In this document: in pieces, positions 1,216 to 12,253 of the stretch
How the letters are laid out: each line of letters starts with the position of its first letter
How positions within the stretch are numbered: the stretch's first letter is position 1
From: Escherichia coli
Lineage (GTDB): Bacteria; Pseudomonadota; Gammaproteobacteria; Enterobacterales; Enterobacteriaceae
Assembly: GCF_022846255.1 (NCBI RefSeq)
Contig: NZ_AP025682.1
Reading direction: 5' to 3' (one strand)
Length of the DNA: 64,000 nt
Position numbers and translations under genes: made by a program
The notes under the pieces: model-generated
Seen by the model: the letters and a program-made list of their open reading frames with translations, nothing else
Told to the model about the DNA's origin: nothing
Databases searched by the model: none

Positions 1216-1233
1216 TTCCTACAACTGTAAGAC
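1216..1233. promoter_or_regulatory. EvgA-box-like palindrome TTCCTACAACTGTAAGAC upstream of yfdX
   Basis: 17 of 18 match to the EvgA consensus TTCYTACA-NN-TGTARGAA; a second half-site TGTAAGA lies at 1264-1270. Confidence 0.5.
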
Positions 1234-1368
1234 TAAAAGCGGCTTTGCGATAATAACTACAGTTGTAAGATAACCCTTTCAAAATGTCCGTTGCTCTCTG
1301 ATTTCTCATTTCATGCTCACCCAATATGATGGCGGCGTTTTCTAAAACTGTTAAAGAATGAGGTAAGT

Positions 1369-2001
1369 ATGAAACGTTTAATTATGGCTACTATGGTCAC
1401 AGCAATTCTGGCATCTTCAACTGTATGGGCTGCTGATAATGCACCGGTAGCGGCACAACAGCAAACTCAGCAAGTTAAGCAAACCCAGAAAACGGCAGCA
1501 GCAGAGCGTATCTCTGAACAAGGTTTATATGCGATGCGTGACGTGCAGGTAGCGCGCCTGGCTCTGTTTCATGGCGATCCGGAAAAGGCAAAAGAACTGA
1601 CCAATGAAGCTTCCGCTTTGCTGTCAGATGATAGTACCGAATGGGCAAAGTTCGCTAAGCCAGGTAAAAAGACCAACGTCAATGATGACCAATATATTGT
1701 CATTAATGCATCTGTCGGAATTTCTGAGAGTTATGTAGCGACACCCGAAAAAGAAGCCGCGATAAAAATTGCCAACGAAAAAATGGCGAAAGGGGATAAA
1801 AAGGGTGCAATGGAAGAGCTTCGCCTGGCCGGTGTTGGTGTAATGGAAAACCAATATTTGATGCCGCTTAAACAGACTCGTAATGCACTTGCTGATGCGC
1901 AGAAACTGCTTGATAAAAAGCAATACTACGAGGCAAACCTGGCGCTTAAAGGTGCGGAAGATGGAATCATCGTTGATAGCGAAGCACTGTTTGTGAACTA
2001 A
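1369..2001 (+). CDS. yfdX: periplasmic protein YfdX (EvgA-regulated)
   Basis: 210-aa ORF with N-terminal signal peptide; synteny upstream of frc. Confidence 0.8.
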
Positions 2002-2244
2002 ACCTGACAGGCAATATATTGAGGTAAAGGATTTAACTCCCTCCAGTCGACAATTTTTTATGACCACAATACGACAGGTTGTGGTCATAAAATTATTTGG
2101 CGCTCGCGGTGCTATAAACTCGCATTTTATCTTCCTCAAAGTAAACCGCAATAATCCCATATTATCACAAATCATTTATTATGTTATATTTTATGGTACG
2201 CTTTAAATAGTGTAATCATAACCTTACTTGTAAATCACTGACAC

Positions 2245-2262
2245 TTCTTACAGTTGTAAGAA
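2245..2262. promoter_or_regulatory. EvgA box, perfect palindrome TTCTTACAGTTGTAAGAA upstream of frc
   Basis: perfect 18-bp inverted repeat matching the EvgA binding consensus, about 250 bp upstream of the frc start. Confidence 0.6.
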
Positions 2263-2512
2263 TAACATCACAAATGTCGCGGCTCTCTCTGATTACCGCG
2301 AACCAATATTTATTATATTCTTCTTTTCGTCCTCACTACTTACCATGCAGAAAGGAATTGGAAGTAGCGATGAAATGATTTTCAGCACTTGATACAGGAA
2401 TTTAAAAATATCGAGTGCAGCTACGACGATATTTTGCAGATTATTTATAGAGGCGTTATGCCTTAAATAAACGCTAAATTAACACATATTTAATTAACTA
2501 ATAGGTATTGCT

Positions 2513-10700: not shown

Positions 10701-11392
10701 ACTACATTTAAGGAGTGAGTAAAATAACGGGAAATCATACTGCTGGTAATGATGTTACTACCAATAAAGTAATCATTCTGTCCGGCTGAGACGGATGCTA
10801 ATGCCTGATATAAATTTGTAAAAGAGATAATTGTTGCTTTTGGAAATGATTGATGAATTACCTCGTCTGGGGGATAATTTGCTACTCGAGCAATATTTAC
10901 TGGTTTTGATGAGGTAAGCGGTCGCATTGAATCGTGAAGGGTAGTGACCAGCGCCGGAAAGGTAATTATCAGAGGATTAGTTGCAGCAATGTCATCATTA
11001 AGAGGCGGCGAAGCAACTAAATGTGATAACACTATATCAACTTCACCGTCTTCCAGCGCGTCCATTGCTTTTTGATGATCTGCGTATTCCCGGAGTGTTA
11101 ATTTGATATTTAACGCTCTTTTTAAAAGATTTAAATAATCAGCATTAATACCACGAATCCGTTGCTGCGAATCGGTATGCAACAACGTAGCTGTTTGGGA
11201 CTTGTGTACTGCAATCACAAGATTTTTTTTGCTCGCGAGCCAACGTAATTCCTTGTTGCTCAGACGTAGTGGATCAAGTGTGACACGGTTGTTACTACTG
11301 ATGCCACGATATTCGATGTAATCTCCGTCTGCGAAACTTATGGTCGACCAAAGACCACAACAGAGAAGAAAAATATAGGGTAAAAACTTCAT
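7799..11392 (-). CDS. evgS: hybrid sensor histidine kinase EvgS
   Basis: 1197 aa; periplasmic solute-binding-like domains, HisKA/HATPase, receiver and HPt domains. Confidence 0.95.
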   Translation of the reverse strand: MKFLPYIFLLCCGLWSTISFADGDYIEYRGISSNNRVTLDPLRLSNKELRWLASKKNLVIAVHKSQTATLLHTDSQQRIRGINADYLNLLKRALNIKLTLREYADHQKAMDALEDGEVDIVLSHLVASPPLNDDIAATNPLIITFPALVTTLHDSMRPLTSSKPVNIARVANYPPDEVIHQSFPKATIISFTNLYQALASVSAGQNDYFIGSNIITSSMISRYFTHSLNVVKYYNSPRQFNFLLTRKDSIVLNEVLNRFVDALTNEVRYEVSQNWLDTGNLAFLNKPLELTEHEKQWIKQHPDLKVLENPYSPPYSMTDETGSVRGVMGDILNIITLQTGLNFSPITVSHNIHAGTQLNPGGWDILPAAIYSEDRENNVSFAEVFITTPYVFVMQKAPDSEQTLKKGMKVAIPYYYELHSQLKEMYPEVEWIKVDNASAAFHKVKEGELDALVATQLNSRYMIDHYYPNELYHFLIPGVQNASLSFAFPRGEPELKDIINKALNAIPPSEVLRLTEKWIKMPNVTIDTWDLYSEQFYIVTTLSVLLVGSSLLWGFYLLRSVRRRKVIQGDLENQISFRKALSDSLPNPTYVVNWQGNVISHNSAFEHYFTADYYKNAMLPLENSESPFKDVFSNTHEVTAETKENRTIYTQVFEIDNGIEKRCINHWHTLCNLPASEHAVYICGWQDITETRDLIHALEVERNKAINATVAKSQFLATMSHEIRTPISSIMGFLELLSGSGLSKEQRVEAISLAYATGQSLLGLIGEILDVDKIESGNYQLQPQWVDIPTLVQNTCHSFAAIAASKSIALSCSSTLPERYLVKIDPQAFKQVLSNLLSNALKFTTEGAVKITTSLGHIDDNHAVIKMTIMDSGSGLSQEEQQQLFKRYSQTSAGRQQTGSGLGLMICKELIKNMQGDLSLESHPGIGTIFTITIPVEITQQVAAVEAKAEQPITLPEKLSILIADDHPTNRLLLKRQLNLLGYDVDEATDGVQALHKVSMQHYDLLITDVNMPNMDGFELTRKLREQNSSLPIWGLTANAQANEREKGLNCGMNLCLFKPLTLDVLKTHLSQLHQVAHIAPQYRHLDIEALKNNTANDLQLMQEILMTFQHETHKDLPAAFHALEAGDNRTFHQCIHRIHGAANILNLQKLINISHQLEITPVSDDSKPEILQLLNSVKEHIAELDQEITVFCQQND

Positions 11393-11396
11393 GTGG

Positions 11397-12011
11397 TTAG
11401 CCGATTTTGTTACGTTGTGCGAATGTGTAAAGATCCATCAGTGATTTGCATTCTAATTTTTCCATCAAGCGACTTTTATAAGTGCTGACAGTTTTGTTGC
11501 TGATGAACATTTTTTCAGCAATGTCATTATTATCCTTGCCATCAAGAATATACCGCATGACACTAATTTCTTGTTTCGATAAGGAGTCGAGTTTTTGCTG
11601 GTCGGACGTTAAACTTCCAACAAACCGGTTGAGAGAGAAGGGGAAATAGCAGTAGCCATTTTTTGCAGCTTCAATAGCTGCAATGATATTGTTCATGCCT
11701 TCTTTTTTACTCACGAAACCATTAGCGCCAGCATCAGCACAATGTTTCCCGTAAAAATGGTCATTTTTAGCGGAGACAATAATAATAATTCCGCTATATT
11801 GGCGCTTTCTCAGCGTTTCTAACACCTGGATACCGTTAACTCCGGGGATATCGACATCAATGATGACGATATCAGGCTTAAGTGTTTCCACCCGCTGAAC
11901 GGCGCTTCCGCCTTCAGTCAACTCTGCTAAGATTTCAATATCGTTTTTGATCAATAAATTACGAATTGCTGCGATAGCAAGAGGATGGTCATCAATAATT
12001 ATTGCGTTCAT
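11397..12011 (-). CDS. evgA: response regulator EvgA (NarL/FixJ family)
   Basis: 204 aa; receiver domain plus C-terminal LuxR-type HTH; immediately upstream of evgS. Confidence 0.95.
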   Translation of the reverse strand: MNAIIIDDHPLAIAAIRNLLIKNDIEILAELTEGGSAVQRVETLKPDIVIIDVDIPGVNGIQVLETLRKRQYSGIIIIVSAKNDHFYGKHCADAGANGFVSKKEGMNNIIAAIEAAKNGYCYFPFSLNRFVGSLTSDQQKLDSLSKQEISVMRYILDGKDNNDIAEKMFISNKTVSTYKSRLMEKLECKSLMDLYTFAQRNKIG

Positions 12012-12235
12012 AGATTATTCCCTTTGCAATGAAGCATTTCCCTTCTCCCTGTAGTAATACAGACATAAGGTATCATCTCATTTTCTCAATAAAAATAAGA
12101 AAATTTGAGCTTCCTTTAAGATAATTCGACAAGTATACCATATAAATAGTCGGCATAAATAAAATGTCAACAATAAAATCAGGGATGATACCGATGATTT
12201 ATAGTTTCAAATGAGCACTATAAGTTTTCTCACTA

Positions 12236-12253
12236 ATCCTACAGGCGTAAGAA
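12236..12253. promoter_or_regulatory. EvgA-box-like site ATCCTACAGGCGTAAGAA in the evgA-emrK intergenic region
   Basis: 16 of 18 match to the EvgA consensus in the divergent promoter region. Confidence 0.5.

Follow-up and report, generated by a model that had tools for sequence, protein, structure and literature searches.

Predicted EvgA operator sites in the chromosomal neighbourhood of evgAS in Escherichia coli

The question raised by this locus is whether the 18-bp inverted repeats lying between its genes are operators of the EvgS/EvgA acid-response two-component system encoded beside them, and which promoter each repeat would serve. The EvgA inverted repeat and its K-12 regulon (ydeP, safA-ydeO, yegR, yfdX, yfdWUVE/frc and emrKY) were established by Masuda & Church 2003, Kato et al. 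2000 and Itou et al. 2009, to which PMC3720670, PMC8174306 and PMC9496106 refer. In the window, i.e. the whole stretch of 64,000 nucleotides analysed here (contig NZ_AP025682.1, assembly GCF_022846255.1), the boxes are best read, with a probability of roughly 0.93, as predicted operator sites of the two-component system encoded beside them. The observation holds but is unremarkable, since EvgA sites at yfdX, frc and emrKY are already known and these sites have been described as EvgA sites for yfdX, frc-oxc and emrKY.

Gene content and regulator

The initial annotation had assigned the host genes correctly: an E. coli chromosome of 99.7% identity has the same order (ypdI, yfdX, frc, oxc, yfdV, yfdE, evgS, evgA, emrK, emrY) in its RefSeq annotation, and the locus is carried by 5385 of 5426 E. 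coli genomes. The coding features, each based on an ORF and on annotation, are the following.

799–1074, minus strand: ypdI CDS, divergent from yfdX
1369–2001, plus strand: yfdX CDS
2513–7743, plus strand: frc-oxc-yfdV-yfdE operon (frc 2513–3763, oxc 3817–5511, yfdV 5581–6525, yfdE 6598–7743)
7799–12011, minus strand: evgS (7799–11392) and evgA (11397–12011)
12427–15128, plus strand: emrK (12427–13590) and emrY (13590–15128)

The regulator is present: the EvgA protein, with Response_reg and GerE/LuxR helix-turn-helix domains, is identical to K-12 EvgA, and evgS is intact. EvgS differs from its K-12 counterpart at 40 of 1197 residues, and natural EvgS variants without a pH response are reported (PMC5706723), which makes it uncertain what signal induces the system here. 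For induction through EvgA and for its direct binding, the literature is the source. The yfdWUVE genes are described as EvgA-induced (PMC3720670), and the same source has EvgA binding the inverted repeats upstream of yfdX and yfdWUVE; direct activation of the emrK and yfdX promoters is given in PMC5706723, PMC8174306 and PMC8147483, with further support for EvgA activation of yfdX, yfdWUVE/frc and emrKY in PMC9496106.

Motif matches in the window

The motif is TTCYTACA-N2-TGTARGAA, the consensus as quoted in the initial annotation, and the K-12 safA, ydeP and yegR sites reproduce it. Palindromes had been reported upstream of yfdX, upstream of frc (as a perfect copy) and in the divergent evgA-emrK region, and all three are present as described. 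A further "half-site" reported at 1264–1270 is there in sequence, but it is not a mere half: it belongs, as the right arm, to a complete fourth box, weaker than the others, that the pattern scan detected. The yfdX region has two full boxes, rather than the one and a half originally proposed.

1216–1233, unstranded: distal yfdX box TTCCTACAACTGTAAGAC, 1 mismatch, 19.0 bits, a strong site
1254–1271, unstranded: proximal yfdX box TAACTACAGTTGTAAGAT, 3 mismatches, 12.3 bits, weak, at the canonical promoter position
2245–2262, unstranded: frc box TTCTTACAGTTGTAAGAA, 0 mismatches, 22.1 bits, the best match in the window
12236–12253, unstranded: emrK box ATCCTACAGGCGTAAGAA, 2 mismatches, 19.0 bits

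The scan of the window for further sites that had been suggested as a check returned five matches at no more than 3 mismatches against 0.57 expected, a count reached by none of 100 dinucleotide-preserving shuffles. The fifth match (60129–60146, 3 mismatches) is attributed to chance, because it lies inside a 944-aa prophage tail ORF and its score is within the null range. A reading of the boxes as terminators or hairpins was also rejected: a terminator was taken to require a GC-rich stem, a loop of 3–8 bases and then a T run, whereas the boxes are AT-rich with a 2-base centre and no T tail, and the terminator scan found none at the boxes. A full-text literature search with the consensus string and the literal box sequences returned nothing useful.

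Specificity is seen most directly with a weight matrix trained solely on the K-12 boxes at the EvgA targets safA, ydeP and yegR, upstream of which the consensus occurs and all of which are unlinked to the locus in the window. The top three matches in the 64-kb window are 2245 (22.1 bits), 12236 (19.0 bits) and 1216 (19.0 bits); in shuffled sequence, the mean top match is 12.9 bits and the 95th percentile 16.6 bits. The initial claim of a match to the known EvgA regulon is therefore upheld by this matrix as well as by literature statements (PMC3720670, PMC5706723, PMC8174306, PMC8147483). The proximal yfdX box falls within the null range and is not significant by score alone; what speaks for it as a candidate site is context, namely its position, its conservation and box-box recombination in other strains.

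Conservation and distribution

In an alignment of nine sequences, one of them from a divergent lineage, 3 of 64 half-site columns are variable, compared with 239 of 1148 background intergenic columns (Fisher p = 6e-4) and 5 of 8 spacer columns, so the half-sites are under purifying selection relative to the spacer and flanks. In both the distal yfdX box and the frc box the half-sites are invariant in the 9 strains and only the spacer varies, while the flank upstream of the frc box varies as well. The half-sites of the proximal yfdX box are invariant in E. coli. Conservation of the emrK box extends over 8 E. coli strains; in L004, a divergent locus, its sequence is TTCCTACAGGTGTAAGAA, a perfect palindrome.

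Loci containing frc were collected by a scan of genome contigs with Frc as the query, giving 80 loci among the matches listed: one Escherichia locus (L004) and Moellerella, followed by Burkholderiales and actinobacteria. The set is a negative control and not a cross-species footprint. Boxes occur in Escherichia loci only among these 80, and none was found at 2 or fewer mismatches in the frc loci of the 79 other species among the matches listed (1.45 Mb). Moellerella, the one informative close outgroup, has frc-oxc-yfdV without evgAS, yfdX or a box.

These results bear on the idea that the palindromes are functionless chance products of the AT-rich intergenic DNA. Each is just 18 bp long, and two of the five matches (1254 and 60129) score in the shuffled range. 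The other three, at 19–22 bits, are the top three of 64 kb, and the shuffles never gave five matches; moreover, all four sites of the locus, the three strong boxes and the proximal one, sit in promoter spacers of reportedly EvgA-induced genes, with half-sites conserved where spacer and flanks vary. Chance is effectively refuted for the three strong sites and is scarcely credible as a general account.

Another NarL/FixJ-family regulator, e.g. RcsB or GadE, might instead be the main binder. Related regulators bind short AT-rich inverted repeats, and the TAAGAA and TTCCTA hexamers presumably resemble the arms of the RcsAB box. Klebsiella yfdX is described as RcsB-dependent in PMC6394985. This alternative is nevertheless very improbable: the repeats have their arms in the EvgA arrangement, they have the motif in common specifically with safA, ydeP and yegR, which are EvgA-specific direct targets, and PMC8174306 and PMC5706723 attribute activation of yfdX and emrK directly to EvgA.

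Box-to-promoter geometry

If EvgA is the binder, its sites might be expected to keep a common distance from the promoters they serve. A TAnnnT hexamer starts +52 to +54 after the box at yfdX, frc, emrK, safA, ydeP and yegR (background rate 0.035 per position), the transcription starts themselves being predicted in AT-rich DNA. Every box would accordingly be centred at about -74, a fixed distance from a -10-like hexamer. The 178-nt leader of ydeP (PMC11210196) ends at precisely the position that the rule gives for the start, with the qualification that -178 is the probe end, which need not be a mapped start. The DNA separating the box from the -35 region is conserved as AAATGTC...CTCTGATT at yfdX and frc, and as TGAAGC...GTCYTATTT at safA and ydeP. 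The promoter features, with starts of yfdX, frc, emrK and ypdI predicted from hexamers in this AT-rich sequence, are as follows.

1158–1163, minus strand: putative ypdI -10 hexamer TATTAT, +53 to +58 from the distal box
1303–1330, plus strand: putative yfdX core promoter, TTCTCA, 16-bp spacer, TATGAT (promoter scan and offset table)
2056–2092, plus strand: terminator-like yfdX hairpin, 15-pair stem then T-rich tail (terminator scan)
2314–2319, plus strand: putative frc -10 hexamer TATATT, +52 to +57 from the box
12125–12137, minus strand: evgA promoter region, from the leader coordinates of PMC11210196 mapped onto the window
12307–12312, plus strand: putative emrK -10 hexamer TAAATT, +54 to +59 from the box, in the conserved island CATTTAAATTA

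The position of the putative frc -10 hexamer, which would give an frc start near 2326, reads CATATT in most other strains. By analogy with yfdX, a second box might be sought 38 bp upstream of the frc box, and there is none in the sequence read there. For a BvgA-style secondary EvgA site some 20 bp beyond each box, inspection by eye shows only weak ACA-N2-TGT-like cores, at frc. The yfdX hairpin separates the yfdX transcription unit from frc, and in L084 and L085 it carries a compensatory change (GACCAC..GTGGTC to GGCCAC..GTGGCC).

The ypdI-yfdX spacer

The yfdX -10 hexamer (1325–1330) lies +54 to +59 from the proximal box, which would place the start at about 1337, and the core promoter region is invariant in 9 strains. 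The proximal box is followed by 40 bp that form a paralogue of the frc promoter (z = 3.9; none of 500 shuffles), and it is the proximal box, not the distal one, that aligns with the frc box and shares its downstream promoter module. The distal box is about 112 bp upstream of the predicted yfdX start; its register is that of the divergent ypdI, which it may possibly serve and for which a start near 1151 is predicted. ypdI is not known as a listed member of the EvgA regulon. Its mRNA rises about 10-fold from pH 7.6 to pH 5.8 (PMC10746267 Table S3), with a low absolute expression of about 11 RPKM once induced (PMC10746267), and it is 5.5-fold up together with yfdX, yegR and ydeO in a second study (PMC5811628).

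The number of boxes at yfdX varies: most genomes have 2, about 415 of 5426 have 3 (some 8% of the complete E. coli genomes), and a single one has 4. Examples are K-12 with 2, STEC316 and ij001 with 3, and IBS28 with 4. The additional boxes come from 38-bp duplications in other strains, in which recombination has joined the distal and the proximal box. A tentative reading is that the ypdI-yfdX spacer is a bidirectional EvgA-controlled unit, with the distal box directed to ypdI and the proximal box to yfdX; the 38-bp series would be produced by unequal crossing-over between the two yfdX boxes, and could tune EvgA-dependent output between lineages.

It is also possible, if somewhat doubtful, that the strong distal box alone matters at yfdX, the proximal 18-mer being no more than a decayed relic and the distal box being unconnected with ypdI. 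The two scores (19.0 against 12.3 bits), the low absolute level of ypdI mRNA and a chance expectation of roughly 10% for the +53 hexamer on the ypdI side are all in keeping with this. A relic is harder to reconcile with invariant proximal half-sites in E. coli, or with the alignment to the frc box, the shared downstream module and the regulon-wide -10 offset, and two independent data sets show ypdI induced together with the regulon, which speaks against a distal box unconnected with ypdI.

The evgA-emrK spacer

The emrK-facing arm of the 12236 box, TGTAAGAA, is perfect apart from a C at position 11, and the -10 hexamer on that side would give an emrK start at about 12319. The evgA starts at -114 and -124 (PMC11210196) correspond to 12125 and about 12135 in the window. 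The former (-114 from the ATG) has the extended -10 element TGGTATACT, and the latter pairs with TTGACA; the evgA promoters are strong and consensus-like. The box lies 110–120 bp upstream of these starts, outside the regulon register, and no TAnnnT occurs at the regulon offset on the evgA side of the box. It therefore seems positioned for emrK and not for the evgA promoters.

A palindromic box in a divergent spacer could work both ways, and the site might be chiefly an autoregulatory evgAS operator rather than an activator site for emrKY. This is unlikely because of the positions of the evgA start sites and their near-consensus elements; in addition, the canonical offset and the conserved -10 island are found on the emrK side, and evgAS is stated not to be autoregulated (PMC8174306).

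Proposed mechanism and implications

Activated EvgS phosphorylates EvgA, a NarL/FixJ-type regulator. By analogy with related regulators, an EvgA dimer would then occupy each 18-bp inverted repeat, with one LuxR-type helix-turn-helix per 8-bp arm. Bound about 74 bp upstream of the start at promoters with weak -35 and -10 elements, the dimer could recruit RNA polymerase, and this recruitment would turn on yfdX, frc-oxc-yfdV-yfdE and emrKY. For yfdX, the weak proximal box would be the canonical activating position, and the strong distal box may either help to load the weak one or drive the divergent ypdI promoter in the same register.

The finding confirms textbook regulation, bears out how the host portion of the window was annotated, and serves as a sanity check that the prophage flank is ordinary E. 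coli core genome. What is added is the second full yfdX box, the apparently uniform -74 geometry, a possible link between EvgA and ypdI, and a common 38-bp polymorphism in box number. These additions would be of modest interest for work with PyfdX and PemrK reporters reading EvgS activity in natural isolates: the promoter itself varies between strains, and therefore reporter output may not reflect EvgS variation alone.

Comparison with known systems

With the K-12 EvgA regulon there is agreement in consensus, genes and positions. In K-12 the locus has the four sites at 2483513–2483530, 2493506–2493523, 2494500–2494517 and 2494538–2494555, which differ only in spacer bases (at yfdX, AC and GT here versus AT and AC in K-12); apart from the 40 residues of EvgS, the regulator matches as well, and nothing essential differs.

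BvgA of Bordetella is the homologue behind EvgA's name (PMC9496106). Bordetella BvgA promoters (e.g. fha) resemble those described here in having a FixJ/NarL-family regulator whose inverted repeat lies far upstream of the -35 element, and yfdX is BvgA-like in having more than one site per promoter. In the case of BvgA, extra dimers spread cooperatively toward the -35 element. There is also a likeness to the lux box of LuxR, a palindrome of about 18–20 bp to which a dimer binds that has GerE-type helix-turn-helix domains. However, lux-box promoters are class II, with a box centred at about -42.5 that overlaps the -35 element, whereas the predicted centre at about -74 in the EvgA promoters is a class I-like distance.

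Genomic setting

Over its first 16 kb, the window is E. coli core chromosome. Many complete genomes match a 14-kb query at 99.7% identity, and 5385 of 5426 genomes contain 80% or more of this query. The gene order, as annotated by RefSeq in the best-matching genome and in agreement with the ORFs of the window, is lpxP, yfdY, ypdI (minus strand), yfdX-frc-oxc-yfdV-yfdE (plus strand), evgS-evgA (minus strand) and emrK-emrY (plus strand), in keeping with the assignments of yfdX, frc, evgA and emrK made in the initial annotation. Beyond these genes lie dsdA, dsdX, dsdC and then a prophage, hence the name "host locus" for the first part. 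The prophage, in the stretch from about 16000 to 64000, is lambdoid and includes terminase, portal, tape measure, gpJ, tail fibre and porin genes; for the stretch 16000-40000, 80% coverage is not reached by any one E. coli genome of the collection.

The EvgA protein is identical to that of K-12, with Response_reg and GerE (LuxR-type HTH) domains. EvgS (7799-11392, minus strand) has 40 of its 1197 residues different from the K-12 protein; PMC5706723 reports natural variants of EvgS, in group B2, that are unresponsive to low pH. The 9-codon leader ORF evgL (MLHCKGNNL; 12008-12037, minus strand) is intact, with a stop codon that overlaps the evgA start, and in K-12 the translation of evgA is coupled to evgL (PMC11210196).

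EvgA boxes in the window

When the whole window was searched for the 18-bp box consensus TTCYTACANNTGTARGAA, allowing up to three mismatches, five matches came up versus 0.57 expected; of 100 dinucleotide-preserving shuffles, none reached five. Four of these lie in the host locus:

1216-1233, TTCCTACAACTGTAAGAC, distal box in the ypdI-yfdX spacer
1254-1271, TAACTACAGTTGTAAGAT, proximal yfdX box, the fourth match
2245-2262, TTCTTACAGTTGTAAGAA, upstream of frc
12236-12253, ATCCTACAGGCGTAAGAA, evgA-emrK divergent spacer

The palindromes at 1216-1233, 2245-2262 and 12236-12253 had already been reported, and each is present at those positions. An extra half-site reported at 1264-1270 is real as sequence, but is the right arm of the full 18-mer at 1254-1271; yfdX therefore has two complete boxes, 38 bp apart centre to centre, and the locus has four full boxes, not three and a half-site. 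Besides 1254-1271, the scan for further sites yielded only 60129-60146, which lies inside a 944-aa ORF in the tail region of the lambdoid prophage, scores at chance level and was rejected as a chance match.

Identity of the boxes as EvgA sites

The initial annotation had read these palindromes as part of the EvgA regulon, and the view that they are EvgA sites is supported by three independent lines, namely unlinked targets, half-site conservation and species distribution, as well as by the secondary literature. In K-12, the same consensus is found upstream of safA, ydeP and yegR, all given as direct EvgA targets (PMC9496106, PMC8174306, PMC8147483). When a symmetric weight matrix is trained on these three K-12 sites and no others, its top three matches in 64 kb are the boxes at 2245 (22.1 bits), 12236 (19.0 bits) and 1216 (19.0 bits); the best match in shuffled windows has a 95th percentile of 16.6 bits. 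The 1254 box, at 12.3 bits, is within the chance range on score.

The three spacers were aligned among the window, K-12, six more E. coli strains (96.9-98.7% identity) and a divergent Escherichia locus (NZ_JAATUR010000016.1, labelled E. coli SCPM-O-B-8794), in which the EvgS protein is only 90% identical and the YpdI protein 69%. In this nine-sequence alignment, 3 of 64 half-site columns are variable versus 239 of 1148 remaining intergenic columns (Fisher p = 6e-4). All three differ in the divergent locus only, and two of them bring its emrK box nearer to the consensus. The 2-bp box spacer is variable in five of eight columns; conserved arms around a variable spacer are the pattern that would be expected of a dimer touching two 8-bp arms. 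The emrK box of the divergent locus (19729-19746) is a perfect palindrome, TTCCTACAGGTGTAAGAA; the eight E. coli sequences sampled all have the two-mismatch version.

Of the 80 best frc loci listed, which come from different species and total 1.5 Mb, only the Escherichia locus has matches with two mismatches or fewer, although most of the other genomes are GC-rich and make a weak control. Moellerella wisconsensis has frc-oxc-yfdV without evgAS, yfdX or the box; its cluster (10001-14247 of that locus) encodes Frc, Oxc and YfdV with 87%, 71% and 75% identity. No further Enterobacterales frc locus was present among the best 80 Frc matches listed, which hints at a patchy distribution of the oxalate module and possibly at its horizontal acquisition.

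Inferred promoter geometry

With each box oriented toward its gene, and the offset counted from the box end, a TAnnnT hexamer starts 52-54 bp past the box in six of six promoters; TAnnnT occurs in these spacers at a background frequency of 0.035 per position. The hexamers are:

yfdX, TATGAT, 1325-1330, also reported by a promoter scan, with TTCTCA at 1303-1308
frc, TATATT, 2314-2319
emrK, TAAATT, 12307-12312, within a conserved island
safA, TATATT, K-12 locus
ydeP, TAATTT, K-12 locus
yegR, TATTAT, K-12 locus

From this offset we infer a box centre near -74 from the transcription start. The ydeP 5' leader used in PMC11210196 is 178 nt, and its end coincides exactly with the start predicted from the offset rule. 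The box that holds the regulon register at yfdX is the weak proximal one, not the distal one.

The 40 bp downstream of the box are significantly similar between yfdX proximal (1272-1311) and frc (2263-2302; z = 3.9), and between safA and ydeP in K-12 (z = 6.1). The first pair has AAATGTC...CTCTCTGATT in common, the second TCCGC.CA...TGAAGC...AGTCYTATTT. Given this similarity, adjacent promoters look like duplicated modules; either that, or a second element may lie there, possibly secondary EvgA contacts.

Two hairpins lie nearby. One, in the yfdX-frc gap (2056-2092), has 15 pairs and a T-rich tail and is probably the yfdX terminator; its stem carries a compensatory double change in two strains. 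A small one in the inferred emrK 5' leader (12338-12352), GTGCAAAACATGCAC followed by TGTGTTTGAT, is terminator-like by a simple scan.

Candidate genes served by the 12236 and distal yfdX boxes

According to PMC11210196, the evgA leader begins 114 nt (or 124 nt) before the ATG, which maps the starts to 12125 and 12135, behind the near-consensus elements TGGTATACT and TTGACA. Since the 12236 box lies 110-120 bp upstream of these starts, no hexamer occurs at the regulon offset on its evgA side, and evgAS is reportedly not autoregulated (PMC8174306), emrK is the best assignment for this box.

Relative to yfdX, the strong distal box would be at about -112, out of register. On the opposite strand, TATTAT at +53 to +58 (1163-1158, minus strand) puts the box in the regulon register with respect to ypdI, the divergent gene. 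The K-12 ypdI mRNA is at about 1.1 RPKM at pH 7.6, 11 at pH 5.8 and 2.9 at pH 4.4, roughly 10-fold higher at pH 5.8 than at pH 7.6 (PMC10746267 Table S3), and glutathione raises ypdI 5.5-fold, along with yfdX, yegR, ydeO and emrK (PMC5811628). This circumstantial evidence tentatively suggests ypdI (799-1074) as a candidate unlisted EvgA target; alternatively, the distal box may merely help to load the weak proximal site.

Box-number polymorphism at yfdX

The ypdI-yfdX spacer has two boxes in both the window and K-12. In strain ij001 (L089, 337-747), an insertion of 38 bp is an exact second copy of the unit from box to box and gives three boxes, the middle one being a hybrid, TAACTACAATTGTAAGAC. 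The three-box allele was confirmed in STEC316 (L091, 401-520). A junction-spanning query detected this allele, as a single 120-nt match, in about 415 complete genomes out of 5426, and the allele was present in 6 of 60 evenly spaced rows. Four boxes are found in one genome, IBS28 (NZ_CP049979.1). After the 38-bp duplication, the outermost boxes still have the register for ypdI and for yfdX, and the copy-number pattern looks like unequal crossing-over between the two boxes. In ETEC6 (NZ_CP041627.1), the match to the yfdX box region carries the annotation of an IS5/IS1182-family transposase, which marks an insertion in the spacer between ypdI and yfdX.

Relation to known EvgA sites

The corrections to the initial annotation are minor, namely the count of four boxes and emrK as the gene for the 12236 box, with ypdI and the box-number polymorphism as two small candidate leads. 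Direct binding of EvgA to the emrKY promoter is stated in PMC9496106 and PMC8174306, both citing Kato 2000, and PemrK and PyfdX serve as directly EvgA-activated reporters in PMC5706723. According to PMC3720670, inverted repeats in front of yfdX and of yfdWUVE are bound by EvgA. As these secondary sources are explicit on EvgA sites, the boxes are a rediscovery of sites already known.
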